Source: Gammaproteobacteria bacterium
GTDB taxonomy: Bacteria; Pseudomonadota; Gammaproteobacteria; S012-40
Length of the DNA: 64,000 nt
NCBI GenBank assembly: GCA_029883265.1
Contig: JAOUJM010000001.1
Coordinates: 10,511 to 74,510, forward strand
Direction of reading: 5' to 3'
Part shown: positions 7,635-51,027 of the stretch, piece by piece
Layout: every line of letters begins with the position of its first letter
Numbering within the stretch: position 1 is the stretch's first letter
Notes under the pieces: generated by a model
The model's input: only the letters and a program-made list of their open reading frames with translations
Database searches by the model: none
What the model was told of the DNA's origin: nothing
Program-made: the position numbers and the translations under genes

Positions 7635-7664
7635 TCCGTCTGATACTTGCATTACAATAGTGCC

Positions 7665-37800: not shown

Positions 37801-40800
37801 GGCCTGTACAAAAACCATAAGTCGATTACCCAAGCCATCACTTTCTAACTTAATATTGTTGCCACCATCTAGTACACCAAAACCCGGAATACTTAACTTT
37901 TGTGATGCAGCCCATCCTGTAGCTACCGAATAGCGCATGGTGCGAACTGCTCGGGAAATTTCCCAAACCACTTCCAAACCACCATCGGGGAGAACAGTGG
38001 CATTAAAATCGGCGTTGTAGGTGCCACCCAGATAGGTTTCACCAATCCAACCCGATCCCAAAACATAACGATCGGCTTTAATGGGTTGTGGATTGGTGGA
38101 GGTATTACCTTCAGTCCATACTAGATAAACATCACCATTATGGCCTTGATGTAATTGAAATGGTTTCCATTCGGGAAAGCTCACCGGTGCTTTAACAGTG
38201 GGTGCGCTCCAACTATTCGTTGATGCATCATAAAACATCACCATTAAATTGCCGGAGGTATTGGCAAGATTCATTTCATAATATGCAACGGTAATATTGC
38301 CCGCGTCATCAATTAATACCTGGGGCGCTTCCATACGCGTGGACATTGCTTGCCCATCCACCAATGTTATTGCAGCTTGCCAATTTACATTAGTACCGCT
38401 TTGTTGATAGCGACTGATATATAGACTTTTAGATTGTGCAATACTTTGATCGGCCAAGACATCATTATCAATCCAAACTGCCACACCCTGCCCGCTGGTG
38501 TTAGACGCTACATCGATACTTTCTTCCGCTTGCGCCGATGTGCTATACACGGTGTTGGTTGCGACGGCGTGTTCCGCATTGCTTAGCCAACCAGGATAGA
38601 AATCACCGGCATAAACAATCTTTGTAGTCTGTAATTGTTCTGGAAGGGCGATAGCAGAGGCAACTTTATTTAAGTCGAGATTAATGCTTTTGTTTACAAA
38701 TTCACCACTAACTATTTCCGACCAACTCAGTAATCCGAAACCTAGCTCATTCACACTTAGATAAGGACCATAAATACTACTGTCACTTGCGGCCACCTGA
38801 CTCGGACTTGTCCAATTTGCACCATCAAGTGAATAACGCACGAAAAGCGTGCTCGGACCATTTTGTTCACGCCACACCAGTGCCATTCGACCTTGATCAT
38901 CTTGATGAACCTCATAATCAAAATAAAGATAATGACTGGTGAAGCTTTGCTGGGTCGCCACGGATGTTGTTGTCGACCAGCCCGTTGCTGAATCAAATCG
39001 CTTGGAAAACACTTCCTGGTTATCCTTCCAAAACAACACCCAATTGCCTTCCCCTTGATTGAGCAGTTTTAGATCCTTATTGCGATAGGTGCTTGAAGTT
39101 AATACGCTATCGATATTTTCAGTGGTTGTGGTATCACTCATCGCATCATAATACGATGTACCTAAAACACCGGCGTTGTACCACACCATGAGGCGGTTTC
39201 CTACAGTGTCGCTATCGTGGGCGATATTTGCATAGGTATTTGTAATGAACTGATTCTGGGTTGGTTGAACACCGACGCCTGCAATGTAGTCAGTAACTTT
39301 AACAAGATTGCCTCGCGACCAGGCAACGCTCGCATTACCCGACTCGGTGACATCTAATACCGGATACAAATTGAAAGTGGTACCATAGAGACGATCATTG
39401 ATAAATTGCGCGCCCGTCCAACCGGATCCCGCGACAAATCTATCCAAAACAATATCATTGTATTCCGGCGAGGGACTGTCTTGGTTGTACATCAGATAAA
39501 AAGCCCCGGTTCCACCGGTTTTCAGCTCAAAAAGCCGTTTTGAGTCGTAATTTGCAGCCATGTTCTGAATGGTATGTTGCTGCTCGGATTGCCACGTTTG
39601 TGTTGCCGCATCGTAAAAACGTGTCATCAAATAGTAATTACTAGACGTCAGCTCAGCACCATCATTCTCCTGCCACGCAATCATGGCATTACCTGCATCA
39701 TCAATGGCGACCTTAAGATCATAGAAAGTGACGGTGGGTGTGGTTTGTCCTATGGCAGGTTCGGCGCCAACAGTAATGCTTTTTGGTTCACCCCAGGAGC
39801 CACCAAACTCATTCATGGTGTAGTGTGAAACAAAAATGCTTTTGGAATAACCACGGCTGAAATCGCTCGTGGTGTTATCCTCGATCCATGCGGCAACACC
39901 AGAACCATTTGCACTCATAGCGACATGAGGATTGATCGCTGCGTATTGAGTGGTTTGGGGTAGTGTTTGCAAGGTTCCCGTAGACACAACTCGTTCACCC
40001 GGATAGGTGTAACGTGTCTCATTCCCCAACACATCGCTTACCGTTTGTAACTGACCGGCTGCATTATAGGTAAAAGAAATACTAACCCCATCACCACTGG
40101 TAATGTTACTGATTAAATGGCTCACATCATCCCGATAGGTATAAGTCGTTACATAACGTTGGCCATTAATCGTAGAATTGGTTGTACCGCTAATAGCACT
40201 GATGAGCGAATCGGGTGATAAATCAACAATCACCTGAGTTAAACGATTCAATGCATCATAAGTGTAATGGGTGCGTGCACGGGATTCGACAGCTTGAGTT
40301 TTAGTATCTCGAACCGTACTGGCGATTTTTGTTAAATTTCCTTTAGGGTCATAAACAAGATTAACTGTTTCGACAATACCTTCTGCTTGTAGTAGTTCAA
40401 TTTTTGAAACAAATTGACTGGGCGTGGATCCCCCACCGTAATTATATTTAATTTCATTCTGATCAGAATCAACAACACGACTAACACCCCAAATCGCGCT
40501 ACCATCTGTTGCGGTACCAATTTGCGTATATTCTTCGGTAAAGCTTGAGTTGCCATCCCAAAATGTCCAGTTAGTACCATCAAAAGTTAATATATCATGA
40601 GCGCCATCACCGTCAGTGCTAATGTAATGGTTGTTGGCTTGATCATAAGTAAAGAGTGCTTCAAATCCATCCTTATACGATTTGATCACACTGGAACCAT
40701 CTTGGTTGACCGTTCCCGACAAGCTATGAACACGACGATTTACTCCTAGTCGCCAGTTATCACCATTGTCATCATTTTTCTGACCCAGACTGTTATAAGT

Positions 40801-41001
40801 ACGAACCAGATTGAAATCGAGTCCCAAACCAGAGATAAATTCATCCTGGGCTTGCACCACCAAATTACCCGTTTGGGTATTCACATAAACATTGTCGCCA
40901 TTGCGGCCCAATCGAGCTTTGCCTTGGCCGGCATCATTGCCGATGAGATTAAGTGAGGTGTTGTATAAACCCAGTCCTTCACCATTGGTTATCGCAACCA
41001 T
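21847..41001 (-). CDS. Giant YD-repeat (Rhs/teneurin-like) polymorphic toxin, 6,384 aa; C-terminal 330 aa supplied by IS66-type element B
   Basis: Single uninterrupted 19,155-nt ORF with a GGGAGA SD before the ATG at 41001. Dozens of YD-type repeats (YxYDxxG(R/N)L...), LysM-like modules, C-terminal GHSLGG hydrolase domain. No signal peptide, PAAR, TPS or LXG-type N-terminus recognised by eye. Confidence 0.9.
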   Translation of the reverse strand: MVAITNGEGLGLYNTSLNLIGNDAGQGKARLGRNGDNVYVNTQTGNLVVQAQDEFISGLGLDFNLVRTYNSLGQKNDDNGDNWRLGVNRRVHSLSGTVNQDGSSVIKSYKDGFEALFTYDQANNHYISTDGDGAHDILTFDGTNWTFWDGNSSFTEEYTQIGTATDGSAIWGVSRVVDSDQNEIKYNYGGGSTPSQFVSKIELLQAEGIVETVNLVYDPKGNLTKIASTVRDTKTQAVESRARTHYTYDALNRLTQVIVDLSPDSLISAISGTTNSTINGQRYVTTYTYRDDVSHLISNITSGDGVSISFTYNAAGQLQTVSDVLGNETRYTYPGERVVSTGTLQTLPQTTQYAAINPHVAMSANGSGVAAWIEDNTTSDFSRGYSKSIFVSHYTMNEFGGSWGEPKSITVGAEPAIGQTTPTVTFYDLKVAIDDAGNAMIAWQENDGAELTSSNYYLMTRFYDAATQTWQSEQQHTIQNMAANYDSKRLFELKTGGTGAFYLMYNQDSPSPEYNDIVLDRFVAGSGWTGAQFINDRLYGTTFNLYPVLDVTESGNASVAWSRGNLVKVTDYIAGVGVQPTQNQFITNTYANIAHDSDTVGNRLMVWYNAGVLGTSYYDAMSDTTTTENIDSVLTSSTYRNKDLKLLNQGEGNWVLFWKDNQEVFSKRFDSATGWSTTTSVATQQSFTSHYLYFDYEVHQDDQGRMALVWREQNGPSTLFVRYSLDGANWTSPSQVAASDSSIYGPYLSVNELGFGLLSWSEIVSGEFVNKSINLDLNKVASAIALPEQLQTTKIVYAGDFYPGWLSNAEHAVATNTVYSTSAQAEESIDVASNTSGQGVAVWIDNDVLADQSIAQSKSLYISRYQQSGTNVNWQAAITLVDGQAMSTRMEAPQVLIDDAGNITVAYYEMNLANTSGNLMVMFYDASTNSWSAPTVKAPVSFPEWKPFQLHQGHNGDVYLVWTEGNTSTNPQPIKADRYVLGSGWIGETYLGGTYNADFNATVLPDGGLEVVWEISRAVRTMRYSVATGWAASQKLSIPGFGVLDGGNNIKLESDGLGNRLMVFVQASSPKINLWYSEGGAAWSTGFVVDTISSTLYNTNINPEIFKLDGDQWLVTWKNGGNLYTRVFDSVNGLSDTKLLGATSRGNSNYFDYRIEQDKQGRIVALWEDGASGAAVVKSRYYVPGRGWSDEVAQDGVGTGNKVLVDLSLDEQGQAFYLWNDWSSVGGGLIENNLSSHTFNFFSPTYQEFTLPPFHTVSASDTWENIAFAIYGDEQLAVSLQEYFASQGVTSLVEGMDLIMPLNFYYVKNETTSTRTMVEDLTRNTQTNYFLDEQNRLHEFYDQNQNRMVYGYDEDGRSSDNITSITDQNGNITRFAYDDQGNRTSMIDSEGVRVDYEYNDVNQIISETRYRVNDPDGADINNTGTGGVGASDAQSSFYIYDAEQHLVFTVSSEGVVNEYVYDTQGRQISQILYKGHIDTSALDPATPISATLLNQAPYNSVVNVGNILQRSDTTYDFRGNISTVTTFDSINPTTGAGVTTTASTTHFVYDAQGILIETIEAQAAATGETRDFITTFTYDGLGRLLASNKPLNHTTTYFYDDVGNQIVRTDANELQTTTVYDSHGYAISQSQQDGQLNPLGTIEYKYDSSGNLRLTIDQTGNYSQNYYDATNRLVATVDKEGGLTETVYDDAGRVIKTIEYSTPVLQSIVNYPYVAGSNFYELSAIKPNSSPSDRINYFIYDDADRLVMQLTPYDNDVTRVAVTQHFYDGSNQLTHSIAYANPFVITGMPNNPRAEYFLDSTTGTYVNEDANNDRRTRFFYNNDGQLVATLDAEGYLTETEYNAAGQVVKTSAYANRSTANLASASLQQLKDAIVRNLAKDQYSYNFYNAKGQLIANHDAEGYLSTFSYDLNGNETESIRYNNKALIISAKGIPADGTYPIMEVRVDGVLVDSIVVDSENFKDYQINALFDQRDTYTIDLTFVNNDLTSRDLQIQSITTGEHQQVVATPDTYSVSVAHGLIQKRLAHVNDKTIVKTYTELNQMETVTNSVDGLVTSYAYDDVGNLIRQTDSYLNALLEFADLDVSLAPENGYTVQSGDTWESIVRSVYHTANANAFVAFAELMGAASPTVGEMLNLPGRFSYTHNQRSSLLRYDIQGRLIGEQLNAQGIAKLDTLINPSESELDLLWEIYGVTHTYNEQGLRTSTKDQNDHRTWFYYDDNGRLRFTAQDVSGTLDESGKVLSNVAEVNELSYNQFGEVKETVAYSTRITNSNTLTGGLVTPSFLDRLSGNTMVDSRTQSSYNLRGAIWRAINGEGQRTEYAYNAFGQISSSVQQQDPTLIPVSQALTGQTSRSDTYVYDRRGLSTSTLKDVSVAGHTGLEIETKRTYDAFGRVIQSTDGNSNITQFGYDRLGRQVQTRNALDVSRSQTYDAFGRVLTMTDAFLNVTTYAYDDATHTLTVTTPELIQTQTITDRNGQTIKIIDGNQSAANSNDGTEYHYDTNGKLVKVVDMLNNTITSEYDKAGRLTHTVDKNGVYSKFEYDAANRVMTRTVDPMTIHTTGDNETGLNIQTQYVFDGLGRKVTTIDANGVHTDTEYDRAGNVLAVVVDAVNGGLNLRTEYTYDAEGRQLTVTEGANSTQARETQYIYDHLGRRTDTIVDPGGLNITTKYYYDAADNMVRKVEGYRRVDVSGLSGSLTLNYAFDDQTLTSSYYVMWSNVTSLATDRILLKENGTTVYDSPADSDFGRYRRGRSGFTYELVLLRNGLELSVATVLPFTPALGAFSETSEVAFATDLSAEDTSHSMRYVYDDVNRLRYSIKNADVLDFEYMELDPIPTGQLAVVVESVYNDRGDKVKTIQYALPISTTTLDDHSTEADILSLVSASADLAKDIVDYSVFDDDGRLTVTVNAVGNYTVYEYDDNGNVIRQSRLANSVSTTDLATINSTNTELLAQTILQKRPDVIANDQGDHFAYDKLNRLRYSVDAMGYVNEKRYDASGQVILSMRYASKETTFADYKEATIRGNLAGNSSTDQINHYFYDNAGRKIYSIDALGYVNQTSYDALGQAIVASRFYQALTINSYQDSTPTAAEWNTYLETRINTLNRQVVDVTETTPLVTATSGKDRVSFQQYDAAGRVSFSVDAEGYVTGREYTGDLLSRVTQYANQLQVVNDTTAEGFPESGVATLATQRFDVRNEGDIQLLVSGTNLLYRNSDTTSGDRSTRYVYDDAGRLYQEILENVSYTTHSTDENGDLVTEYGYDAFGNTTSIVKRLNISGDELQRTTQEFSQRGLLTRRTVYLEAASVVANLDTAHPQTQMAYSSEFGYDAFGNQTKIIDPRGIELTETDSDWADNERKLILGLTATTNLSYIQLTQDQKDTLLNYYSTYQTFDQLNRKTASVIKEGAGSTVNIFELKKTDYDAFGNITKITEPYDTISYFYYDKLDRNTLVVDPERYVTTKAYDGMGNLTGTMQYATAIAAAHTVDDNTTESQILETFLEINTDKDQKTLLNYDQLNRKTELTNAESVKEKYDYDAFGNQIGKLLGHQPITNVLDPDYQRSLGYQYHYNYDRKGNLTSEYLPIANKGGISDRESIEVGMDGRFLLPFIDFETTGFERQTNEFSYDAFGNRRISREAAGMEEERSRSYTYNKLNLLVKTENHRIKLSAGDSVGITTTIEQKYNVVGNLVREIDANLNITQHYYDNLGRRIATHDAEGFLKTFAYDSVSNIIEERKYRDTATFADSIYKFTVSNVYMQLTHRYDAFNQIVETKLPAEHRYEKDRMVPIGDPGDDQFIKEENYVSETVIRKYYDHKGRLVREVDGNENSIFHYYDKKGNKRVTVDALRYATQWNYDAFNNAIREEKASIRLRDVVDENTSLLEVLEKFETNGYEDRIVQVNLEEGYFYPYFWQVGDGMPSVMYVKINLPTLKQGDYYVIRAARADGTYHTTFPTTTILTKGTIPLRSYNTGEIKEFVITLISNSDSFEIARVDTNLMLGSQGWHSGYSAFDVNRLKISDVDYVGGVWSASLLREGETTATPVDVMVNENGEAFFDVGNISGRATVSYILQDNDRVIKSGSINLSNVNVATNGGYNFVIESVDLRDNQYSDSRIKNYSFDKLNRLKTDSLENFQTYSFSNGNMQSGVLEDSVTAYVYDVMGNITTIVDAESNTTNYSFDVLGRLLTKKSGLKSTKNIYDAHGNVIEARNIASEKDSESRNIPLNGAPSLANLDQIQKFSYGVDGRLLEDWDANFNANVSEEYGANNKYTYDAVGNVRTQSLNRHDADGNLFTDIAEYIYDRLNRNIVSGKRTEKNSSVYAYFENKYTEYNGYEKAAFQGAYERNTLQLSRPEANKARQVFFEYDSNGNLIKTNSDGVVKEYAYDRNGNATKEILPSITDNNAPSVYRSSVYNERNELVHIYEPSHTQSISQTLYQTLSDRKVDIEVTPYGGLHLRVHDAVGKDWAETWWDAVDPNVDSIKNSYGEGSLVLEFNPNNEEEKIITYGSGGKDAHYRTPKGHDIGSRTYSATIKKNGYTIASVSGSFRDVDGQNNYVAVDQYYGRDIILKNVPKSLGTLTVEIRRVGETEWVTVEHFDTPSGFNPSWQTWNFGDAGLEGQFELKYEYHYDNEATNPDLTPHTGKVILNLSNNPSVEPGSHLRLDGNAFSSDDGDNSIEARVTSFPFMDSSLSWYYIRDVYLENVDPAQGTLSATIRQSGGETYKEIIFRTITDSTRQRYSVPRSYSGDYVINYTYKPNDPNAKVLQGQLSIDLTGEASLYSHRRVNSSDNSDPDQFVQIHKSHYYNAFGEIVQEKDGKDIYTYFEYDKMGNLIRKSNPRKDPIRNSYYSRLQTIQDANAIYYYDKLGNVTGITDARNNLKRFSYDQNGLKQEFNPDGGGMTYVYDGFGNVIEKRQKLTADSDRVTKYQFDHNNQITYVTKEKHNVIKYVLGSFGGITEETSNIYDNVEKYEYDENGNRIAHINLVDTSLDLTDPDTNSHDEILHDQGGGRERTYFDALGRVVKHVSYGDKVTRYDYNYLTFNGQEGGFSKTTYSGNLYIVRSGDTLESIARQLLRVSEVANRIGSDNGVVDETLVVGNTLTVYLYGRREKLNYIVQTGDTLASIAYSLLNVEDMSNSIGQANNITDADLKAGLQIIIPHYETRAITDQYDYFNKLVYHRDLGNRSYRYFYDARGQLRYQIGNTDPGASIIATDAAWNNIDTQLHGFTYDYMDLYRYSLNNFMTNHSDYDQVIEFDYNDNGSLKAKVDYGFNGGNDGVRLVSRYGYDNNGNKTYEAVYEEGANADIGKDYQYTIAIYDDYNRVVEINDPFFNITYDYDEMGNRIHVVSKYHGGIDLNAHRGADYREATGDFVQEHWYDYDSMNRFRITQGRLDVGGSGNVEIAENKGYEVLYNLAGERIGVNYIRANTTMIERYGYTKNGILETVEHGKIVDNVEDKNLVSRRLLDALGRTSSSHLYDPDIETVVTTIPPQSVQQYDYSYDLDSRISRIEYRKRVENSEDQFLYLQEQSTIHNDYTYREIDRLDLAEKNVSYQVKSIEEQKNFRNSYFYSYWDSAKKSVGRSDVNSRGFVDGYSHLYYDQNGHLMRMDDSNSPLHGTKYERRVEFTVDADGRIIMRNEIDNTNYDVNRYFYLNGRGIGEVSNRGAGETDYTQILAQSRLSNKEIADNEKRGKNRVISADFDQNYQAISANYPANTASEYLVVQGDTLETIAGKVWGDASLWYVIANANNITNIDLTPGISIIIPNVVTNIHNNADTFKPYSPGEIIGSTDPSMPARNQPSKSEIFWMNVASVVISIAAFIVFGPQGAIIAAGMTSYAIQKYMKNVGYIDEIDEEEIVKSMTIAAIISQIPGLNQTGGGVVKGALQGAGRALISTGLSMAMESTEQRKKYNSQAGNLFANVAVGALVGGVTSSLPSNVGKVDGWGFAGVAGDAIRGALTGVGRIAVNSMTLKDYRPDWRTVAVEALSSAASGYISAEQSTKKFDNKLDELKINDHRQRQAIKKHYTKSIRKGVSGEDAWKSALGELPLFGGIQPGRNLIRNGGKTYNGYGQVSVQNSAPGKIPYRQSSDAVETKPILTFKNGQLVDENGTLYNSQLASAAPIRLDFSGSLDWYENAMVSDDVYQEYTGKEPKKVTEDIYRMGRDFIDVLDMKPENFVDKKSGYQGALYFNYRTSEFIFANRGTDTKLGRHEAVKDAVASIAQGSDFNSTQYEFGINLAIDLQIALGSSPLTFTGHSLGGGIASAQAGRLKSSAVTFNAAGLSDGTIERYGMDRNHLKKNVYAFYTPGEILSTLQASPVVDSVLNQWGTVPKNLLAAVMALNDVSYGRDIGWHRFGPGQMPEAAGTRIAVPAVNEAKQPLPWQSYLDPVDLHDMQYFINAFK
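22817..22839. repeat. IS66-type right terminal inverted repeat (element B), translated as VSVQNSAP within the giant ORF
   Basis: GGGGCAGAGTTTTGGACGCTTAC; identical to the right IR of element A (10478-10500). Confidence 0.8.
22840..22847. repeat. 8-bp target-site duplication, right copy (CTGGCCAT)
   Basis: Encodes (Y)GQ of ...TYNGYGQ in the giant ORF. The same octamer and frame are found at 18725-18732. Confidence 0.85.
23146..23640 (-). other. Hydrophobic helix + glycine-zipper-rich segment of the giant protein (aa ~5788-5952), between repeat shell and toxin
   Basis: IFWMNVASVVISIAAFIVFGPQGAIIAAGMTSYAI ... GGGVVKGALQGAGRALISTGLSMAM ... AGNLFANVAVGALVGGVTSS ... GWGFAGVAGDAIRGALTGVGRIAV. Confidence 0.6.
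23761..23895 (-). other. LysM-like module 5 of the giant protein (aa 5703-5747)
   Basis: YLVVQGDTLETIAGKVWGDASLWYVIANANNITNIDLTPGISIIIP. Confidence 0.7.
25576..25875 (-). other. Tandem LysM-like modules 3 and 4 of the giant protein
   Basis: YIVRSGDTLESIARQLLRVSEVANRIGSDNGVVDETLVVGNTLTVY and YIVQTGDTLASIAYSLLNVEDMSNSIGQANNITDADLKAGLQIIIP. Confidence 0.7.
34597..34731 (-). other. LysM-like module 2 of the giant protein
   Basis: YTVQSGDTWESIVRSVYHTANANAFVAFAELMGAASPTVGEMLNLP. Confidence 0.6.
37099..37239 (-). other. LysM-like module 1 of the giant protein (aa ~1255-1301, degenerate)
   Basis: HTVSASDTWENIAFAIYGDEQLAVSLQEYFASQGVTSLVEGMDLIMP. Confidence 0.45.
37297..39939 (-). other. Two tandem ~420-aa repeat units (aa ~355-775 and ~825-1235), each of 7-8 blade-like segments: twin beta-propeller-like domains
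   Basis: Recurrent ~50-aa pattern G-x-x-x-(V/L/I)-(A/V)-W-x(8-20)-(R/K)-(Y/F)-x(3-6)-W(S/T). Examples: SGVAAWIEDN..SHY, AGNAMIAWQEND..TRFYDAATQTWQ, GRMALVWREQN..VRYSLDGANWTSP. Second unit: GQGVAVWIDND..SRYQQ, GDVYLVWTEGN..DRYVLGSGW, GRIVALWEDG..SRYYVPGRGWS. Confidence 0.55.
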
Positions 41002-41065
41002 GAGAGTCTCCCTAGAATCAGTACTTATAATTTATCGTCTACAAGTTATATCCAGGGTTTAATGA

Positions 41066-41521
41066 AGATGTTCAGTCGGATTGCACAAAAAAATGTTTGT
41101 TTGACTATTCTTTATACGATTTTAATTTTTTAGTCTATTTTTGCCTAGCCATATGAGATGTCATGTCAATTTAAAGCGCTGAAGATCAAGCTTTTTCAAA
41201 AAAACTCATAACGCTCTGAATGATTTTTTCCGGTGTATCAAGATTGTCTCCTGCTGCGAGAATAGTTTTACATAGGAGTACGAGCGGAGAATTTGGCTGC
41301 ATGGCTTCCGCTTTTAGCAATACTTCGCTGGCTTGATTGTCATTGCCTTCAAACAATGCCACCAAAGCCAAACTTGCGAGTGTTTCCGCACTTTGTCCAT
41401 CAAGTATTAATGCTTGCTGCAAGTTGCTTTTTGCTACTGGGATTTGATTACTGGCTATTTGCGCCCAGGCCAATGCAACCAGGTTCGCAGTGTCGTTTGG
41501 CATGAGGTTTGTGGGTTGAGC
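41066..41521. repeat. 456-bp direct repeat, copy A (3' third of the TPR gene + ~120 bp downstream sequence)
   Basis: Near-identical (only a handful of mismatches seen by eye) to 46981-47436. Divergence points read directly at both ends. Confidence 0.9.
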
Positions 41522-41545
41522 TGAGCTAAAAAACAAGTCGATCAT
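41186..41545 (-). pseudogene. Duplicated 3' fragment of the 362-aa TPR gene fused to unrelated upstream sequence
   Basis: The last ~110 aa (NLMPNDTANLVALAWAQIASNQI...SFFEKA) are near-identical to the C-terminus of 47101..48189. The N-terminal MIDLFFSSAQPT is unrelated. Confidence 0.8.
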
Positions 41546-41877
41546 CCACCATAGATTATGAGCATAAAGCCCTTGACGAACGTATACTGTACTTGATTTG
41601 TTTTCGAGTAATGCATTGTTTTCAGTTGCAAGCTTGATTAGAAAATCACCTTCATCACCGAGTGTGCCTACTCATACATTTTCGTCTGAGAAAATATTTG
41701 GTAGGTGTAGTAATTGGAATAAGCATTCAACGATGTCTCAATATCGTAGAAGGACAATAAACTCCCATTTTCCACACTCAAGCGCACAACGAATTCTCTG
41801 TCACTACCCGCGCTCATAGTCAGTGAAACTGATAGCCCATAAATTATCTGAGTGCGACTTTAACATTGAAATACTCC

Positions 41878-42183
41878 TTAATGTGAATGACTCACCAAGA
41901 TCAACACTTTCATTTGATCATTGTTCACGGAAATTTCCAAACGATCAAAATTTAATTGTAATGGTGGGGAGTTTTGCACGGTTACATAGCTGTATCCGAC
42001 GTAGGTGGCAATTTCTTCTAACCTGTAGTGCCCACTTAGATAAGCTTGGGGCATGGCTTCACTGCGAGTGCTCGTATTTTTTTCATAGTACGCGATTGGT
42101 TTGGGGGGCGTTTGTCTTTGAGGCTTGGGGATATCTTTCAACGAAAAGATCGGGTTGAATGTTCGATTGCATTTCTTCAACAA
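41878..42183 (-). pseudogene. C-terminal remnant of an IS200/RayT-like (Y1) transposase-type protein (DnaA-C-like HTH tail)
   Basis: ...RSEAMPQAYLSGHYRLEEIATYVGYSYVTV... resembles the (A/Q)AYxSGxYxxxEIAxxxGxxYxTV tail of REP-associated tyrosine transposases. No catalytic N-terminal part present. Confidence 0.35.
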
Positions 42184-42369
42184 ATTCGCGAAGTGCTTTT
42201 TTAGCTAGTTTTCTGGACGAATGAGCCTTTGACGACGCGCTAACAAACTTATTGATAGTGTATATTTGGATTGCAAGTGCCGGGGCTTCAACTATGACTC
42301 ATTTCCGGACAACTTAAATCAGAAATGGTGTTGCAGCAGGATTTCCCACATTTTCCCTTGCCAACGGTA

Positions 42370-43845
42370 TTAGAAGCTTATCAATACTCCCATCTTCATC
42401 GATGATAGGCTGATTTGTCGTAATTTATGAAAGTGAGTATTTTTCAATTCAAGTTGGGGCAGATGATGCTGGTATCGTATAAAAATATTCATCGCAGATT
42501 GACTAAGGACTGGATACTGAATTCCCATAAGCGCAAACCAAGCGTTATGTATTTTCTCTTGCACTTGCATAGTCCCTTTTTGGGCCAGATAACTTTTTGC
42601 CTGAGAGTCGATTGTATTCCTGTTTAGAGAGTACCCCGAACCAATATTAAAGCCAATTTTGCGAAATGGTCTTATATCAAACATCACATAAAATGGGATG
42701 CTAGTAAATGTGCCACGACTCAACTCGCCTACTTGATTACTGCCCTGCTCATATGCCATACCTATAGTTAATTTTTGATAACCAAATTCCAGTTGCGGGT
42801 CGAAATGATTCTTTCGGTTTTTAGCATATAACGAATAGGCTATGCCAAACTTTGCATTTAGTGTTGAAATATTTCTTCGTTTCGTTATAAAACGGGAAGT
42901 ATGCATGGAAGTATGTGCAGAAATACCCAATAACACAATAGAGTTGCGTGCAGAAAATGTTTGGTCCAGTTTGGCGAGAAATGACAAATTAGGACTGCTT
43001 GTATCATATAAATACTGTGTTTGTTTTCCTTGGCTATCAATTTGCTCATATTGATACTGAACAAAGCCAAACAATCTTTGAGATAGAGGATAAGTGAGTG
43101 TAAAAGTATAGGCAATCATGCTGCCTTTAAGGCTTCCACGTGAAAGTTTTTTCCTTATTAAGTGATCGTCCTCATCCTTCAAGCGAAGTCGTGGTGCCTT
43201 AATCAAATTAAATTCGAAAATGAGTTGACGAAAAATACTTTCTACTGAAACACTCCAGTAAGGAATTTGCAAAAAAGTATTGTAGTGCAACACGGGACCA
43301 GAATGTGTATTAGCTGCGCGTGTGGAATCAGCATAAAATTGGTTTAGGTTACTGGCTACAAAATAGCGTTGACTGCTTCGATAACCTAGCGAAAATTTAT
43401 AAATCGTCTTAACTCCGCTGCTCCAGTGCTGAGTTTGTAAAGTTGAGACTCCTTTAACATTATTGGTTTTTTGGTTTAATACTAAATCACTTATTGAATA
43501 AACATCCGGTGTAGATATATTCCCCGATAACCAATCGCCATCTTTAAGTTGTCCACTTTTCTGTGTCGTACTTCGATTTGAGTTTAATTCGATCGATAAT
43601 CGATTACTTAATGCAGCTGCAATGGAAATTGAAGGGGATATGTTATTAATTGGAAAGTGCAATTCACTTACCGGGAAATGTAATTGAGCGTTTCTTTGCG
43701 CTAATTCCGTTTCCCCCCCAATACGATATTGATTATAGCCTTGGTAGAGACCTATTCCCGGCTGCAAAAAAAGTAGTTTAGCGCCAAAAACGCTTACCGC
43801 GTTCAACGTCAATCCCATGAAGATGATAATATTGCATGTGCGCAT
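42370..43845 (-). CDS. Predicted outer-membrane beta-barrel protein
   Basis: 491 aa. N-terminal signal (IIIFMGLTLNAVSVFG), alternating amphipathic beta-strand pattern, many aromatic girdle residues, C-terminal ...MGVLISF ending in Phe. Confidence 0.55.
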   Translation of the reverse strand: MRTCNIIIFMGLTLNAVSVFGAKLLFLQPGIGLYQGYNQYRIGGETELAQRNAQLHFPVSELHFPINNISPSISIAAALSNRLSIELNSNRSTTQKSGQLKDGDWLSGNISTPDVYSISDLVLNQKTNNVKGVSTLQTQHWSSGVKTIYKFSLGYRSSQRYFVASNLNQFYADSTRAANTHSGPVLHYNTFLQIPYWSVSVESIFRQLIFEFNLIKAPRLRLKDEDDHLIRKKLSRGSLKGSMIAYTFTLTYPLSQRLFGFVQYQYEQIDSQGKQTQYLYDTSSPNLSFLAKLDQTFSARNSIVLLGISAHTSMHTSRFITKRRNISTLNAKFGIAYSLYAKNRKNHFDPQLEFGYQKLTIGMAYEQGSNQVGELSRGTFTSIPFYVMFDIRPFRKIGFNIGSGYSLNRNTIDSQAKSYLAQKGTMQVQEKIHNAWFALMGIQYPVLSQSAMNIFIRYQHHLPQLELKNTHFHKLRQISLSSMKMGVLISF

Positions 43846-43876
43846 TTTACAATAGCCGCAACCACACGATAAAATA

Positions 43877-44809
43877 CTAAATATCAGTTGTTTCTTGATA
43901 ATTAAGAAGATACGGAGTAATTGTTTGCTCGGTTCGGTTCAATAAATAAAAACCGTGTTGATCGACAAGCGCGCCTCTTAATAAAATTAAATCACCATCG
44001 GTAGAAACAGAATATGATTGTATAACTCCACTGTATTCAAAATTAGCTGGGACAAAATCCAATGAATCGACAGTTGTCGTTTTTGGCTGAACATCCAGAA
44101 TATGAAGATCATTATCGGTGATGCCATATAGTTGATCTAGCAAAGAGTTGTATTGCCGAGGTTTGAAGGAAATGCCTTGTTCCGTATAAAAAGACAACTG
44201 TAGATCCAAAATTACTAAGGAATCAGTTGTTGGATGATAGAGAAAAGCTTCTGCATCCGTTTTCCATACGAAGAATCCGTATTGATCACTACTTTCTACG
44301 ACTGTACCAAAATCGTTGACGATCTTAAAGCTGTTGGCCGTGGAAACTGCGATTAAGCTACCATCGGGTGAAGTGTCTAAATTAATAGGTGGTTCTTCCA
44401 GGAGCATTCGAGTTATCTCTACTCCTGAGGCATCGTAAGCAATCAGTCCGTATTCTTGAGTTAGGCGATTTTCCGTGACAAAGAAGGTTGTATTATTTGT
44501 TAAACGAGCTGCGTATAGTTCTGCAATCGAATCTGCTTTGTGATCGTTCAGTTGCATAATTTTCACAGGAGTTTGAATCGATGTTGCTGCTGTAAACACG
44601 GTTTTAGTGTTACTCACCTGGTTATGGGAAGACTGAGGCCCCCAGGTTTTTTGAAGATCCTCGAGAAACAGAACACTGTTATCTGTATCAAAACTCGCGG
44701 CAAAGTAAGAAATGTGTCTTGTTTCCGTTTCTGTCTCGTTTGGCAACAGATCACATCCTAATAAAGTCACGGCAATGTAAGCCGTGACAAATCTAAACAA
44801 TATTTTCAT
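43877..44809 (-). CDS. Lipoprotein, beta-propeller-like (TolB/PD40-type SPDG/STDG motifs)
   Basis: 310 aa. Lipobox VTLLGC. Motifs DTSPDGSLIAVST, SVSTDGDLILLRG. Confidence 0.55.
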   Translation of the reverse strand: MKILFRFVTAYIAVTLLGCDLLPNETETETRHISYFAASFDTDNSVLFLEDLQKTWGPQSSHNQVSNTKTVFTAATSIQTPVKIMQLNDHKADSIAELYAARLTNNTTFFVTENRLTQEYGLIAYDASGVEITRMLLEEPPINLDTSPDGSLIAVSTANSFKIVNDFGTVVESSDQYGFFVWKTDAEAFLYHPTTDSLVILDLQLSFYTEQGISFKPRQYNSLLDQLYGITDNDLHILDVQPKTTTVDSLDFVPANFEYSGVIQSYSVSTDGDLILLRGALVDQHGFYLLNRTEQTITPYLLNYQETTDI

Positions 44810-44814
44810 AAACC

Positions 44815-46089
44815 TTAGAATCCAGAACTCGAAAGATCGCAGTTATTGCTGCTTGATCCATCGTTGCTTGAACTATTCGAGCTACTACAGTGCTCATTCC
44901 CATTTTCTGCAATGAATAGTAATTTACTTTTGGTTTCCGCTTCAACTTCTGCGGTAAATCGAGTGCCAGTCCATTTTTCTGGTAACCCCGTATTTACATA
45001 AATCGCTTCGAGTGCTTTAGTATGAAGGTTAGCAATAATTGATACAATAGGCGATTTATAGGTATAACCTACCCATATTTTAAGAGTACCCAACCATGTT
45101 TTAATGTAAATATAATTGCTACTCCAATGAGCGTAGGCTGCATAAACGTCTCGGCCCACTTTATTGTTATGCAAATCCATTTGGCCTGCCTTTGAGTCCC
45201 AGTTTTCACCCTTTTGTTCATGCGCGTTGGTAAATACCTCGGCCCACCATAAACCGCGACTTTCACTGGATGGCAAAATTAAAGTTGAAGAAGCAAAATG
45301 TGCAAGGTATGCATTCCATGCCGAATGCTGAAAGGAATTTGCTGAGGTACTATCAGCCGTGGTATTGAAAAGACTTTTAGTTGAGCTTTTAGCGTTGTTG
45401 GATGCATTGAAGGTGTCTAACCAATGTTCGGGGTGATTTACCAACAAATAGATTTCACCGGCACTCAATTTACTACCAAATAAATTCTCCAAGTCGTCGT
45501 AAATTGATTGAGAAACCGCCGCTGTATCTATAATTGCATTTTGCAGTTCAGCAATGGAAGCGGCAATTTGCATTTGTACCTGCGGCGTCGCAAGTTCGGA
45601 TATGACTATATAGTTTTTCTCTGCACCGATTTTTTTAAGTTCATTACGAATTTCTGCGACCACATAATCTTCAATATCTTGCTCCGTCATGACTTGATCC
45701 GGGGTCCCTGTTTGAGGATTAACTAAGTTTTGTACTTTCTCATTTGCAAAAGCCTCAACATTGAATGCAGGATAGCTTGTTCCTAGCGCTTGGATGATAG
45801 GTTCGACTGCGTCGAAAGTAGCTAGAAATTCAAGCCCTACACCATCCAAGGATTGAACCACGTGAGGTGTCAACATATCCACGAAATCATCATCGCTCAT
45901 TTCCAAAAGATTAGGAGGAAAGCTGGTTTTATATTTTTCGTAAAGCGGTTGCTCACTAGTGCCATACTGATGACTTACAAGTGAATCTCTATCGGAGTGA
46001 CTACACGCATGCAAAAATGTAGTCAATGATAAAACTATCAAGCAGGAAAATAACTTCCGATTATAAAAATTGTTTTCTAAAATTACCAT
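44815..46089 (-). CDS. Lipoprotein with H-x-x-W-N-A / N-A-H-E / D-L-H-N-N-x-V-G-R motifs (possible metal-dependent hydrolase), Ser/Asn-rich tail
   Basis: 424 aa. Lipobox FLHAC. NSFQHSAWNAYLAHF...FTNAHEQKGENW...MDLHNNKVGRDVYA. C-terminal SSSNSSSNDGSSSNN. Confidence 0.5.
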   Translation of the reverse strand: MVILENNFYNRKLFSCLIVLSLTTFLHACSHSDRDSLVSHQYGTSEQPLYEKYKTSFPPNLLEMSDDDFVDMLTPHVVQSLDGVGLEFLATFDAVEPIIQALGTSYPAFNVEAFANEKVQNLVNPQTGTPDQVMTEQDIEDYVVAEIRNELKKIGAEKNYIVISELATPQVQMQIAASIAELQNAIIDTAAVSQSIYDDLENLFGSKLSAGEIYLLVNHPEHWLDTFNASNNAKSSTKSLFNTTADSTSANSFQHSAWNAYLAHFASSTLILPSSESRGLWWAEVFTNAHEQKGENWDSKAGQMDLHNNKVGRDVYAAYAHWSSNYIYIKTWLGTLKIWVGYTYKSPIVSIIANLHTKALEAIYVNTGLPEKWTGTRFTAEVEAETKSKLLFIAENGNEHCSSSNSSSNDGSSSNNCDLSSSGF

Positions 46090-46619
46090 AATATTTTTCT
46101 CAACTGTCTATTACCAAAAACAAGATCTTGCAGCAGGCTTCCTCAAGCTACACCTTGCGATGTTAACCATGCCTTTCTACTAACCTTCAGCTTTGCGAAC
46201 ATCTTGTAAAAGTAGGAAATGGGTGTCTTACAATTTACCCATTTAGAAATCATATGAGTCAATTTGACTGACGTAAAAGGTTGCGTCCCATTTTTCCAAC
46301 GGCCTACAGTAGAATTCGGCTAATAATAATTGGGAATCGGTACTCGAAAGAAATAAGTGTCGTTTTTTAATCGAGCAGCGATTAATTGAACCAATCGAAC
46401 TAATTTACCATTATTATTTTTGCGCATATTACATTACGCATGCAACTTGTCAATTACTTTTGGTTGCTTTAGTTTATTGAGGGATTGCAAACGGGTTAAT
46501 TGTCGGGCTTAGGATTGTGGCTGATAGAGTTTCACACTAGCTGATTTTGTTCGTGGTGCGAATTCGAGTCTTAACGCATTCTCAACTAATAATCTCCATC
46601 AAAGTTGGCCTAAACATTT

Positions 46620-46944
46620 TCAGGCTGAATCAAATTCAAAGGACACTACTGCGCAATCTTTATTTCCACGACCTTGGCGCTCCAACTCGTTATATACAAA
46701 CTGTTGAAGCTGCGATGAAACGCCGTTTTCCTCACACGCCGGCACATTGTTAACTTTCTTGAAAAAGATATAGGCTTCAAAAGAATTCATCCTTGGCCAT
46801 AATATGAGAATCATGAGCCTTAACGGGACAAATATTCTTAAAATACCCGCGAAATGCATCGTTGACATGATCCATATTTCGATCACGCTCTTTCATGCGT
46901 CTCTTTGCTCTGGCAAATGCTTCGTCACTTGGTATTTTACTCAT
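46620..46944 (-). pseudogene. Small gene apparently split by a frameshift near 46780
   Basis: ATG 46944: MSKIPSDEAFARAKRRMKERDRNMDHVNDAFRGYFKNICPVKAHDSHIMAKDEFF* (stop 46777-46779). It continues plausibly in another frame (ORF 46620..46886: ...SFEAYIFFKKVNNVPACEENGVSSQLQQFVYNELERQGRGNKDCAVVSFEFDSA). Confidence 0.3.
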
Positions 46945-46980
46945 CTATTTTCGCCTTCCTGACCTAGTGATCTTGCTCAA

Positions 46981-47436
46981 AGATGTTTAGTCGGATTGCA
47001 CAAAAAAATGTTCGTTTGACTATTCTTTATACGATTTTAATTTTTTAGTCTATTTTTGCCTAGCCATATGAGATGTCATGTCAATTTAAAGCGCTGAAGA
47101 TCAAGCTTTTTCAAAAAAACTTATAACGCTCTGAATGATTTTTTCCGGTGTATCAAGATTGTCTCCTGCTGCGAGAATAGTTTTACATAGGAGTACGAGC
47201 GGAGAATTTGGCTGCATGGCTTCCGCTTTTAGCAATACTTCGCTGGCCTGATTGTCATTGCCTTCAAACAATGCCACCAAAGCCAAACTTGCGAGTGTTT
47301 CCGCACTTTGTCCATCAAGTATTAATGCTTGCTGCAAGTTGCTTTTTGCTACTGAGATTTGATTACTGGCTATTTGCGCCCAGGCCAATGCAACCAGGTT
47401 CGCAGTGTCGTTTGGCATGAGGTTTGTGGCCTGTTG
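46981..47436. repeat. 456-bp direct repeat, copy B (within and downstream of the intact TPR gene)
   Basis: See copy A. Confidence 0.9.
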
Positions 47437-48189
47437 CAAATAGTCACAAGCGGAGGAAAAATCCTGTTGCTGTAATGCAATCATGCCCAGCCCAGACAAG
47501 GACCGTGCATTTTTTGCATCACGCTTCAACGCATGATGGTAATATTGTTTGGCATGATTCAAATCAGATCGATCAAAACTTATCGTCCCCAACACTACAT
47601 GGGCTTCAAGCGAATCAGCATCTAATTCCAAAGCTGTTGTGGCATACTCTAAGGCCCTGTCTTGTTGTTGCGCATCCAAAGAAATAATCGCTAGTTGTCC
47701 GAGTGCTGTCACATCCTGAGGATGCCGCACAAGATATTTTTCGAGATTAGACTGCGCTTCATCAAGTTTATTGAGGTGATGCTGTGCTCGCGCAAGTACA
47801 ACCGCTACATTGGGTACTTGTTGAGACTGTAGATCAATTGCACGAAGCACCTCTTCGGCTTGCTCATACTCTCCTGTATATAAGTAGGCATAACCAAGAT
47901 TGTAACGCAGCACATCATTATCCACGCCTTGTCGCTGCATATCCAACAAAGTAGCAATCGCTTGCTTATAATCACCACTGGCGATGCTGAATGTTGCTAA
48001 ACGAAAAAGCAAACCCGGGTCAGCTCCTAAGCGTTGGATGGCAGATTTAATCTGTTGTTCTGCGTTATCAAACTGCGCAAGCTGCGTTTGTAAATCAATC
48101 ACACGATACAAAAGATGCAAATTGTTTTCGTCTTGTGACAAATAACCTAAAAACTTGTTGAGCTCTGTTTGCAGTTGATCCGTATCCAT
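47101..48189 (-). CDS. TPR-repeat protein (362 aa)
   Basis: Repeated 34-aa A/Y/L-rich helical pairs (e.g. YNLGYAYLYTGEYEQAEEVLRAI, AHVVLGTISFDRSDLNHAKQYYHHALKRD). Confidence 0.8.
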   Translation of the reverse strand: MDTDQLQTELNKFLGYLSQDENNLHLLYRVIDLQTQLAQFDNAEQQIKSAIQRLGADPGLLFRLATFSIASGDYKQAIATLLDMQRQGVDNDVLRYNLGYAYLYTGEYEQAEEVLRAIDLQSQQVPNVAVVLARAQHHLNKLDEAQSNLEKYLVRHPQDVTALGQLAIISLDAQQQDRALEYATTALELDADSLEAHVVLGTISFDRSDLNHAKQYYHHALKRDAKNARSLSGLGMIALQQQDFSSACDYLQQATNLMPNDTANLVALAWAQIASNQISVAKSNLQQALILDGQSAETLASLALVALFEGNDNQASEVLLKAEAMQPNSPLVLLCKTILAAGDNLDTPEKIIQSVISFFEKA

Positions 48190-48205
48190 GCAGGTTCCTG
48201 TTGGC

Positions 48206-48763
48206 TTAGTTTATCGTCTTATACGCGTTTTTTGCTAATTGAAGATTATTATTAACATCCTCATTGCTTTGATCTTGATTGAGCTGTGTTAACAATTCCT
48301 TGGCCTTGCCAAAATATAAATTATCGGCAGGTGCAGACTGCATCAGTCGATTCAAACACTCACGAGATTTCTCGAATTCTCCTTTTTGCGCATGGGCAAG
48401 TCCCTTATAAAACAGTGTCGGCGGACTCAAAGGCTCAACCTCTAACACTTCTGCCCATATTTGTAGCGCGTCATCAATCTGGTTTGAGTCAAAGTGTAAC
48501 ATACCGTACTCAAATTTTTCGATGGTTGCTTGATGACTGTTTTTTAGGTATTGCTGATAAAATTGTTTGGCTTTGTCATACAAATGCAATTGCGCGAACA
48601 ACTTTCCTCCCATAATTAATGCCTCGCTATTATCCGCATCGACTTTCAGCACTTGTTTGATTTTTAATAAAGCGTGATCGACCCGATTTTGCTCGATATC
48701 TAAACGTGCTAAGGCCACTAGCTCCCTATTATCAAATTCATTCAACATGGATTGAATATCCAT
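48206..48763 (-). CDS. Small TPR protein (185 aa), size/shape of a type-III-secretion class-II-like chaperone
   Basis: Three to four TPR units (ALIMGGKLFAQLHLYDKAKQFYQQYLK, LFYKGLAHAQKGEFEKSRECLNRL). Sits between the sigma factor and the large TPR gene. Confidence 0.6.
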   Translation of the reverse strand: MDIQSMLNEFDNRELVALARLDIEQNRVDHALLKIKQVLKVDADNSEALIMGGKLFAQLHLYDKAKQFYQQYLKNSHQATIEKFEYGMLHFDSNQIDDALQIWAEVLEVEPLSPPTLFYKGLAHAQKGEFEKSRECLNRLMQSAPADNLYFGKAKELLTQLNQDQSNEDVNNNLQLAKNAYKTIN

Positions 48764-48803
48764 TATTACTTCTCCTCAATTATTTTCAATTCATTCAAAC
48801 CTG

Positions 48804-49538
48804 TTAGTAACTAACATCCATTGTTTCCGAATGATCCATAAGTTTTCGTAGATTGTCCAAACCACTTTTGTGGAGTTGGGATACGCGCGCTTTTGATAAA
48901 CTCATTAACTTGGCTATGGACTCAAAGCTTAGATGATAAAAATAGTGACAGCGTAACACTTCTTGCTCGTTTTCTTTCAATCTGCCGACTAAATCCCGCA
49001 TTTGAGATTTCAAGCGCCGTAGTTCGTCACTGTTATATGGATTACCATCAATTGCCACTGGGTGATCTTCACTGTCAAGTATATAACTGATCGCAAAGTT
49101 TACCGTGGTCTCAACCATTCGCGCAAACACCGACTGTTTAAAAGCCTCCGAGTCCACAGAGGTAATCGATGTTACACGATCGGCCTGGGCCTGCTTGGCG
49201 AAACTATATTGTTTTCGTTTTTCAGTAAAGTTTTGAATACCATTAAGAATGGCTCCTTTGATTCGATAGCTTGCGAAGCTTGAAAATCGTATATTCTTCT
49301 GCCAATCAAAACGATCAATTGACTCAATAAGACCGACGGTTCCCAATTGAATATAATCGTCTAGGTCAATATCATGCTGATTCTGTTTTAAATAAACATG
49401 GGTTGCAGTTTGCCGGACCAAGCCGAGATAGTGACAGATAATTTTATCTCTAACTTTGCCGCATGAATCCGAATCAAGCTGCTGCCACAAATCCAGTTCA
49501 TCATTGATTATCGGTTCTTCCGCTGAAATTGTCATCAT
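48804..49538 (-). CDS. fliA: FliA-type (sigma-28 class) RNA polymerase sigma factor
   Basis: 244 aa. Region 2 (DDYIQLGTVGLIESIDRFD...FSSFASYRIKGAILNGI) and region 4 HTH (SFESIAKLMSLSKARVSQLHKSGLDNLRKL). Located in the flagellar cluster. Confidence 0.75.
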   Translation of the reverse strand: MMTISAEEPIINDELDLWQQLDSDSCGKVRDKIICHYLGLVRQTATHVYLKQNQHDIDLDDYIQLGTVGLIESIDRFDWQKNIRFSSFASYRIKGAILNGIQNFTEKRKQYSFAKQAQADRVTSITSVDSEAFKQSVFARMVETTVNFAISYILDSEDHPVAIDGNPYNSDELRRLKSQMRDLVGRLKENEQEVLRCHYFYHLSFESIAKLMSLSKARVSQLHKSGLDNLRKLMDHSETMDVSY

Positions 49539-49550
49539 CCATACAACAGC

Positions 49551-50300: not shown

Positions 50301-50314
50301 GCTTAGGTCTACCT

Positions 50315-50728: not shown

Positions 50729-51027
50729 TATTTTTGGATATCAGTCACTTGAACACCATAATTATTATCCACTGCCACGAGATTGCCCCGAGCCACTACT
50801 TTACCATCTAAAATAATATCCACCGGCGCATTAATTTCCTGATTGAGCTGCAATACTTCATTTTCTTTTAAATCATACAATTCACCAACCGTCATCTCAG
50901 AATCACCCAATCTGACTTCAAGCGATACCTTTACATTACGAATCAGTTCCATATCGTTATCTAGCAACTTTTTTCCTTGGTCTTCTTCAATAAAAAACTC
51001 ACCAAGTTCTACATTCTTTACCACCAT
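50728..51027 (-). CDS. fliN: Flagellar motor switch protein FliN (SpoA domain)
   Basis: 99 aa; VSLEVRLGDSEMTVGELYDLKENEVLQLNQEINAPVDIILDGKVVARGNLVAVDNNYGVQVTDI. Confidence 0.85.
   Translation of the reverse strand: MVVKNVELGEFFIEEDQGKKLLDNDMELIRNVKVSLEVRLGDSEMTVGELYDLKENEVLQLNQEINAPVDIILDGKVVARGNLVAVDNNYGVQVTDIQK

Follow-up and report, generated by a model that had tools for sequence, protein, structure and literature searches.

A duplicated TPR gene end flanks an envelope-gene cassette inserted upstream of a giant Rhs gene

How can 5.5 kb of accessory genes come to lie inside a conserved gene arrangement with both of the genes they separate left intact? The question is raised by a locus of an uncultured gammaproteobacterium (assembly GCA_029883265.1), of which we analysed a stretch of 64,000 nt (contig JAOUJM010000001.1, positions 10,511 to 74,510; hereafter the window, in whose own numbering all positions are given). 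Here, an insert with three genes for envelope proteins separates TPR2, a tetratricopeptide-repeat (TPR) gene at the end of a flagellar gene cluster, from a giant gene of the Rhs polymorphic-toxin type, and the 3′ end of TPR2 is present on both sides of the insert. The layout points to integration by homologous recombination.

A 450-bp direct duplication around the insert

Alignment and a repeat finder delimited a gap-free direct repeat of 450 bp, with copy A at 41065-41514 and copy B at 46980-47429, a start-to-start distance of 5,915 bp, the boundaries being fixed from reading of the flanks. The copies are 98.9% identical and differ at five sites (copy A/copy B, in copy-A positions: 41073 C/T, 41098 T/C, 41207 C/T, 41333 T/C and 41440 G/A); further copies were found nowhere else in the window. 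An initial annotation, made from the sequence alone, had described near-identical direct repeats of 456 bp with a handful of mismatches. The exact alignment that it called for bore out the repeat and the handful of mismatches and trimmed the length to 450 bp, the last 7 nt of the proposed range being mismatched. The locus comprises, in the direction of transcription:

TPR2, 47101-48189, minus strand: intact gene, 362 aa, matching Pfam TPR families; homologues lie upstream of giant-gene homologues in relatives
Copy B, 46980-47429, minus strand: 3′ end of the intact TPR2, with the 121 nt that follow it
Insert, 41515-46979, minus strand: 5,465 bp, set by the repeat boundaries, its genes oriented as the flanking genes
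TPR2′ fragment, 41186-41545, minus strand: open reading frame (ORF) of 119 aa, in which an ATG and 11 codons from the insert are fused in frame to the duplicated last 108 TPR2 codons
Copy A, 41065-41514, minus strand: truncated TPR2 3′ end of 108 codons, followed by 121 nt from the TPR2-giant spacer
Unique spacer, 41002-41064, minus strand: 63 nt from copy A to the start codon of the giant ORF
Giant gene, 21847-41001, minus strand: 6,384 aa, DUF6531/RHS-repeat/LysM, polymorphic-toxin type

All genes here lie on the minus strand. Copy B runs on into TPR2, and copy A runs on into the 5′ flank of the giant gene. In copy B, 329 nt belong to the TPR2 3′ end (108 codons and the stop) and 121 nt lie downstream of the gene, close to the estimate of about 110 codons and 120 bp made at the outset. 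With the insert and one repeat copy deleted, the TPR2 stop and the giant gene's ATG (at 41001) come to lie 184 nt apart (121 + 63); our recomputation thus returned the distance given in the initial annotation. The TPR2′ fragment departs from TPR2 by two amino-acid differences (P/S and M/I) and one synonymous change; polarising the two replacements by TPR2 homologues was abandoned, as the relatives are too diverged.

To learn what this site looks like elsewhere, we scanned metagenomes with the first 500 residues of the giant protein, which returned 80 loci at 34-57% identity, and analysed these by tblastn and ORF calling; the comparison loci are distant relatives only, at about 30% protein identity. 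Upstream sequence of 2.5 kb or more was available for 45 loci; in 14 of these, the giant homologue is preceded, mostly within ~3.5 kb, by homologues of a sigma-28-like sigma factor gene (sigma), of a second TPR gene (TPR1) or of TPR2, all three of which precede the giant gene in the window. A TPR2 homologue stands 85 nt before the giant homologue in locus L077, and a TPR1-TPR2 pair precedes it by 111 nt in L036 and by 525 nt in L031; in L037 the order is TPR1-TPR2-sigma-giant. Three loci (L049, L068 and L071) have the window's FliI-FlgD-FlgE-FliN-FliP-sigma order upstream of the giant homologue, and in L068 and L071 a TPR2 homologue is detectable between the sigma gene and the giant homologue. 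The reconstructed 184-nt spacer falls within the 85-525 nt that separate TPR2 from the giant gene in relatives. None of the three genes of the insert occurred in any of the 80 loci, and their homologues lie on three contigs (L004, L089 and L090) free of TPR or Rhs genes.

The comparison supports sigma-TPR1-TPR2-giant as a conserved module that is interrupted here by a 5.5-kb segment. Because relatives share the module, all 80 loci lack the cassette and cassette homologues sit in unrelated contexts, we read the segment as an insertion. The inspection of relatives suggested in the initial annotation thereby favoured its view that the giant gene ancestrally followed the sigma and TPR genes on the same strand: the uninterrupted TPR2-giant adjacency was seen in L077, L036 and L031. 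The flagellar-sigma-TPR-Rhs order was also noted in distant metagenome contigs that appear GC-rich. As for closer relatives, the 5.8-billion-protein database held no TPR2 relative above 27% identity, and a FliA scan for close relatives in GTDB species genomes gave no match, the window's lineage itself being absent from that collection.

Exact-protein look-ups recovered contigs with the same junctions from five other datasets (ERZ27296342, ERZ27296354, ERZ27296366, GCA_029880205.1 and SRR7132593). On the TPR2 side, contig L001 (ERZ27296366) leads from flagellar genes through TPR2, the whole of copy B and the whole insert, and ends 74 nt into copy A at 41441, exactly at the first single-nucleotide polymorphism (SNP) that discriminates the copies. 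The 6,451-bp contig L005 of a metagenome-assembled genome (GCA_029880205.1) covers unique TPR2 sequence, the whole of copy B and the insert before entering copy A and ending at 41438, and L002 (ERZ27296354) likewise joins unique TPR2 sequence to the insert across the complete copy B. On the other side, L003 (ERZ27296342), which is identical to the window, passes from the insert through the whole of copy A into the giant gene; its other end lies inside the repeat at 47179. Two further contigs stop within a copy, namely L099 (Logan, SRR7132593), which runs from the insert into copy A and ends at 41485, and L097, which enters copy B from the TPR2 side and ends at 47151.

The breaks within the repeat reflect nothing more than branch points in short-read assembly graphs. 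Since neighbouring discriminating SNPs are separated by 25-126 nt, a single 141-mer suffices to phase them. The integrated structure recurs in several populations, and the matching junctions in contigs from five other datasets indicate that it is not an artefact of one assembly. Every sampled population carries the insert, which suggests selection for it or simply few samples.

The two copies have diverged by 1.1%, compared with 0-0.15% between co-occurring strains (over 2-17 kb); at the highest strain rate, five or more differences would be expected with a Poisson probability of 7e-4. This divergence fits either a donor arm that had already diverged or an old event or duplication. In L002, copy B carries the copy-A allele at 47248, suggesting exchange between the copies or a polymorphism that arose after the duplication. 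A separate observation concerns strain variation around the locus: L001 and the window differ by 14 SNPs, none of them in 41441-51000 and eight clustered within 370 bp (54696-55064, fliH/fliI region), in what looks like a recombination tract between strains.

Routes by which the cassette may have arrived

Since each copy is continuous with one flank and deletion of the unit restores the ancestral locus, we favour, with some reserve, integration of the cassette via one homologous (Campbell-type) crossover with circular or circularised DNA that carried the cassette and a 450-bp piece of the locus. Such a crossover would have placed a 5,465-bp accessory cassette in the TPR2-giant spacer, 121 nt past the TPR2 stop. 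It would have duplicated a 450-bp target composed of the last 108 TPR2 codons and 121 nt of spacer, with one copy keeping TPR2 intact and the other keeping the giant gene's native 184-nt upstream region. A sister lineage with the cassette adjoining TPR2 could have given rise to the donor circle through an imprecise excision, much as specialised transducing phage are formed.

Campbell-type integration is familiar from suicide plasmids and from defective specialised transducing phage that lysogenise by homology. The present locus resembles such cases in that direct copies of one contiguous chromosomal segment surround the insert, with no short target duplication and no element ends. It differs from them as a natural event in an uncultured bacterium, with no vector, replication origin or phage function, with arms that are 1.1% diverged and with a hypothetical donor. 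Homology-facilitated illegitimate recombination and transformation-induced merodiploidy are known in naturally competent bacteria; there, one-sided homology of a few hundred bp captures foreign DNA, and duplications are possible when the donor pairs with sister chromosomes. The usual outcome of homology-facilitated illegitimate recombination is an insertion with a deletion in the recipient, whereas the outcome here is a clean duplication.

Several points speak against the Campbell-type crossover. Its vehicle is hypothetical, and the unit is devoid of replication or transfer function: no genes for replication, mobilisation/transfer or recombination were found in the insert, whose DNA had no blastn match among plasmids and phages. 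No circular donor molecule was found in limited plasmid and phage collections, a negative of low weight, and no earlier lineage with the cassette beside the TPR2 3′ end, as this route needs, came to light. A same-species empty site or loop-out product, sought as 25 nt of giant-gene flank, a gap of 440-460 nt and 25 nt of TPR2 upstream of the repeat, gave 0 matches in the JGI metagenome and GTDB genome collections. In the short-read contigs, linkage across each copy depends on the phasing of five SNPs less than 141 nt apart. Moreover, the insert is not compositionally foreign. Its GC content is 39.2% (window, 41.5%), with 12.8% of equal-sized windows as low or lower; GC and GC content at third codon positions are unremarkable, and the tetranucleotide distance lies at the median. 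A comparison of insert and flanks, put forward earlier as a check, thus failed to set the insert apart and was uninformative; the host-like composition implies that the source was compositionally similar or that the event is old. The Campbell-type crossover had already been proposed in the initial annotation, and the geometry of that proposal held, whereas a donor circle, a plasmid or phage match and mobilisation genes were not found.

Among other routes, a one-step duplicative illegitimate insertion deserves the most attention, even though we hold it to be unlikely. A staggered break or template-switching repair at the TPR2 3′ end would have captured a linear fragment, with overhangs of 450 nt filled in on either side. 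This would require neither a prior association of cassette and locus nor a vehicle, and it fits the absence of plasmid, phage and recombinase signals and of terminal repeats. To our knowledge, however, end-joining in bacteria is not established as a source of target duplications of hundreds of bp. The copies would also have been identical at the start, so that five differences, set against a strain divergence of at most 0.15%, demand an old event, and the junctions show no convincing microhomology (the only candidate, CAAC, is offset by 3 nt and was dismissed as not meaningful). Alternatively, the cassette may be old at this site and the 450-bp segment may have been copied secondarily to a place before the giant gene, perhaps restoring or supplying an upstream regulatory region. 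In keeping with such a history, the 121-nt native spacer that copy A sets before the giant gene includes two weak sigma-70-like matches (41164-41137 and 41147-41119), and the insert has the same composition as its host. We nevertheless consider it improbable, given that the cassette precedes the giant homologue in 0 of 80 related loci, in several of which TPR2 adjoins that homologue directly, that removal of the insert and one copy yields a spacer within the range of relatives, and that a dispersed duplication of 450 bp landing exactly at the end of the insert would be an extra and unlikely event.

Two further explanations fare worse. The chromosomal site might be empty and the 5.9-kb unit a separate circle or strain variant that the assembler had joined to it, and the contigs that stop inside the repeat (L001, L005, L099, L097 and L003) do show that assembly graphs branch there. 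Yet whole copies are threaded with consistent allele phase in different samples and by different assemblers (copy A in L003; copy B in L001, L002 and L005), across SNPs whose spacing of 25-126 nt lies within one 141-mer. Besides, the JGI and GTDB collections gave no empty-site contig, and the 90%-identity cluster that contains TPR2 has a single member sequence, with no chimeric TPR2 variant on record, which makes an assembly artefact very improbable. Least probable of all, in our estimate, is insertion by a transposon or integrase, be it an insertion sequence (IS), a RayT/Y1 transposase or a tyrosine-integrase island. IS66 elements do occur in the same window (6931-9185 and 18817-21044), and the initial annotation had seen a RayT-like transposase remnant at 41878-42183. 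An ORF exists at that position, but its similarity to Y1_Tnp or any other transposase was not recovered by Pfam, NCBIfam or PHROGs at lax thresholds, by tblastn against plasmids, by a search of the 5.8 billion proteins or by tblastx against the window and the comparison loci. For this ORF and the small gene at 46620-46944, searches with Pfam, NCBIfam and PHROGs (E cut-offs of up to 10 or 1), with tblastn (plasmids and phages), with a word-indexed protein search and with tblastx (the window and all loci) were negative throughout; in the insert, no transposase family appeared at E values of up to 10, and no transposase or integrase signal at any threshold. The terminal 200 nt of the insert lack direct or inverted repeats of at least 9 nt; a tRNA scan found no tRNA in the window, and neither Rfam (over 40500-48000) nor a tandem repeat finder returned anything. 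No transposon target-site duplication or typical attachment-site (att) core comes near 450 bp in length, and the duplication is therefore not a transposition scar, as the initial annotation had maintained.

Envelope proteins encoded by the cassette

Read on the minus strand from copy B, the insert contains two small ORFs, a non-coding stretch, three larger genes (p424, p310 and p491) and a stretch that could not be assigned:

Small overlapping ORFs, 46777-46944 (55 aa) and 46620-46886 (88 aa), together 46620-46944, minus strand: possibly one frameshifted gene
Non-coding stretch, 46090-46619, minus strand: 530 nt upstream of p424, with the best sigma-70-like match of the region in a promoter scan at 46453-46426
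p424, 44815-46089, minus strand: lipoprotein with a Min-Wnt domain (Lipocone superfamily, Pfam DUF6973)
p310, 43877-44809, minus strand: lipoprotein, lipobox LLGC, with weak beta-propeller/WD40-like similarity
p491, 42370-43845, minus strand: outer-membrane omptin-like aspartyl protease with a signal peptide and a C-terminal Phe
Unassignable debris, 41515-42369, no strand assigned: 855 nt in six-frame translation, including ORF 41878-42183

The three "envelope genes" of the initial annotation are located where it had placed them; that description was too vague, and they encode two lipoproteins, one of the Min-Wnt/Lipocone type and one weakly beta-propeller-like, and an outer-membrane protease that resembles omptins. 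p424 carries a lipoprotein signal; among 24 homologues, 90% or more share its Cys29. The match of p424 to Pfam DUF6973 reaches 75 bits, and that to the Pfam wnt model, which describes the animal family, exceeds the gathering score (20.3) with 22.8 bits. A profile built from the 24 homologues and run against the PDB matched Wnt5a, Wnt7a, Wnt3, Wnt3a and Wnt8 with E down to 1e-8, placing AfrHslWN opposite FRHRRWN and MDLHNNkvGR opposite MNLHNNEAGR. The AlphaFold model of p424 (pLDDT 80.9, pTM 0.78) has the Wnt-like helical core of Min-Wnt proteins, as judged from this prediction, and the top seven Foldseek hits were Wnt structures.

Within the Lipocone superfamily, the bacterial, catalytically active Min-Wnt proteins are defined by a His in helix H2, a Glu in H3, an Asp in H4 and an sNxxGR motif; members of this family are predicted to act as toxins on lipid head groups, and some have lipoboxes and paired lipoprotein immunity proteins (Burroughs, Nicastro and Aravind, eLife 2025, PMC12419801). 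In p424, H255, E291, D305, N308 and G312 are invariant across 24/24 homologues (motif MDLHNNKVGR), and H255, E291, D305 and NNKVGR correspond to the predicted H2 His/H3 Glu/H4 Asp catalytic site and the sNxxGR motif. p424 is thus predicted to be a lipid-anchored enzyme that attacks lipid head groups. It resembles the described family (PMC12419801) in its helical core, active-site positions, sNxxGR motif and lipobox, as well as in having a lipoprotein as its downstream neighbour, like the described immunity partners. It departs from that family in its N-terminal domain of ~170 aa, a beta-hairpin at 321-345 and a conserved link to an omptin-like protease, and some p424-homologous loci add a polytopic membrane protein of ~510 aa.

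The hairpin at 321-345 aligns with the region of Wnt5a that contains CHGVSGSC, and the next helix and an LVY strand align as well. Presumably this Wnt5a region is the animal Wnt 'thumb' with the lipid-modified serine; if so, the ancestor of animal Wnts would have the p424 subfamily as an unusually near relative, a reading that we regard as doubtful. Min-Wnt domains were further observed on six viral or prophage contigs (L091-L096, IMG/VR), the similarity being limited to p424 residues ~206-319.

For p310, profile comparison gave a weak signal to WD40 repeat fragments (2.4e-6). A p310 homologue lies directly downstream of a Min-Wnt (DUF6973) gene in 3/3 homologous loci (L004, L089 and L090), and p310 is a candidate immunity or partner protein. 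p491 alone had no match in Pfam, and a three-sequence profile (A3) matched Yersinia Pla (3.9e-12) and OmpT (6e-6). In the alignment, D102/D104 fall opposite the DYDW motif of Pla (GkleDsDW/GNMDDYDW) and D226/H228 opposite its DEH motif (DkDDH/DNDEH), motifs that presumably represent the catalytic Asp-Asp and Asp-His pairs of omptins. By sequence, p491 is related to OmpT and Pla, with both catalytic pairs aligned. Unlike these omptins of ~300 aa, which it resembles in profile match and in the aligned Asp and His residues, p491 has 491 aa; the Pla match spans profile positions 80-311 only, and some 180 C-terminal residues are extra.

Homologues of p491 with 27-32% identity occur near DUF6973 genes on two unrelated contigs (L004:4541-6013 and L089:5529-7052). 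The same two contigs encode a polytopic membrane protein of 505-513 aa (L004:2709-4226 and L089:3986-5527; 54% identical, with a Pfam UbiA match) that is absent from the window's cassette; remnants of this ~510-aa gene or of other neighbours of homologous cassettes were sought in the debris, and none were found. Given these recurrences in unrelated contigs, the three genes form a conserved envelope module of a Min-Wnt protein, a partner lipoprotein and an omptin-like protease. The Lipocone paper (PMC12419801) makes no mention of omptins in its main text, and the omptin and partner-lipoprotein context of Min-Wnt appears to be new.

The remainder of the insert yielded little. For the small ORFs (46620-46944), neither lax domain searches (Pfam, NCBIfam, PHROGs) nor a protein search or tblastx with the window and loci as targets turned up a family or a homologue. 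The "frameshifted small gene" of the initial annotation accordingly survives as two overlapping ORFs, with no homologue to confirm the frameshift itself. Comparison of the debris with Pfam, NCBIfam, PHROGs, plasmids, the protein database and the remaining window sequence gave no match. The 530-nt non-coding stretch probably contains a promoter of the cassette's own, as predicted from the sigma-70-like match. Around 46393 within this stretch, contigs differ in the number of copies of a 9-nt unit (ATCGAACTG): the window has two fewer than L001 and L005, which are longer by 18 nt.

Taken together with the flanking repeats, these genes invite a bolder reading, which we regard as doubtful. The 5.9-kb unit, one 450-bp arm plus the insert, would be a recombinase-free 'hitchhiking' cassette that undergoes RecA-dependent loop-out and re-integration via its captured arm. 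It would also constitute a self-contained surface-toxin module, in which the omptin-like protease releases the lipid-anchored, catalytically active Wnt homologue from the outer membrane and p310 serves as immunity protein.

The toxin island and what the insertion means for it

The cassette lies between a flagellar gene cluster and an island of toxin genes. Beyond the features already given, the surroundings contain:

Sigma-28-like sigma factor gene, 48804-49538, minus strand: 244 aa, 12 nt after FliP
TPR1, 48206-48763, minus strand: 185 aa
Ankyrin gene, 21095-21823, downstream of the giant gene
TNT NADase tip, 17834-18817, downstream of the giant gene
LHH nuclease, 12987-13433, downstream of the giant gene
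Two IS66 copies, 6931-9185 and 18817-21044, 78-87% identical

With DUF6531, many RHS repeats and LysM, and with an ankyrin gene and TNT and LHH tips downstream, the giant gene is of the Rhs polymorphic-toxin type. In its ancestral order, the window runs from a flagellar cluster (FliF...FliP) through the sigma-28-like factor and the two TPR proteins directly into the giant gene, with no fliQ, fliR or flhB between FliP and sigma. Both TPR proteins gave sub-threshold matches to chaperone models of type III secretion systems (SctY, LcrH/SycD). The Rhs protein may be under the control of the flagellar regulon, or may even be exported. A candidate sigma-28 promoter for the giant gene (TAAA...CGATAA) was rejected, its 20-nt spacer being outside the scanned range of 13-19 nt that brackets the canonical spacing; the sigma-28 motif is no commoner in the window than by chance, and the promoter idea was dropped.

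Downstream of the giant gene, window positions 1-21823 hold an orphan toxin/immunity array with many ORFs of 120-160 aa. Short conserved repeats are common to the 3′ part of the giant gene and this array (6439-6463, 11572-11596 and 17539-17563; 10470-10500 versus 22809-22839) and may be recombination sites for the swapping of toxin tips. A direct repeat of 152 nt with 97% identity was also noted near the start of the window (957-1108 and 1548-1699, 591 nt apart). The island thus shares with Rhs 'rearrangement hot spot' loci the DUF6531/RHS giant gene, downstream ankyrin gene, TNT/LHH tips, small ORFs and IS66 elements, and the new cassette adds another predicted toxin to it. It differs from them in the site of change, as known rearrangements swap C-terminal tips at the 3′ end, whereas here the insertion lies upstream of the 5′ end and involves no RHS sequence.

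For the genes on either side, the duplication meant that neither was damaged: TPR2 is complete, and the giant gene retains its native 184-nt upstream region together with 329 nt of the sequence that formerly preceded it. No convincing intrinsic terminator was found in the spacer; with the insert genes co-oriented with the operon, read-through transcription is possible. Two arms of 450 bp at 98.9% identity would be expected to permit spontaneous RecA-dependent loop-out, and loss or retention of the cassette should be measurable in populations.

Homology-driven insertion that leaves a long direct duplication is a known type of event and is not surprising in kind; here it would have taken place within a polymorphic-toxin island. 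The locus is a natural and clean illustration of gene gain, probably driven by homology, in which both neighbours are spared. More noteworthy are the genes of the cargo module and the way in which flagellar, sigma, TPR and Rhs genes stay linked in distant relatives. The position of a Min-Wnt gene beside those for an omptin-like protease and a partner lipoprotein suggests a route by which lipid-targeting toxins may be released or processed, and the conserved flagellar-sigma-TPR-Rhs arrangement emerges as one that tolerates and accumulates further conflict genes.

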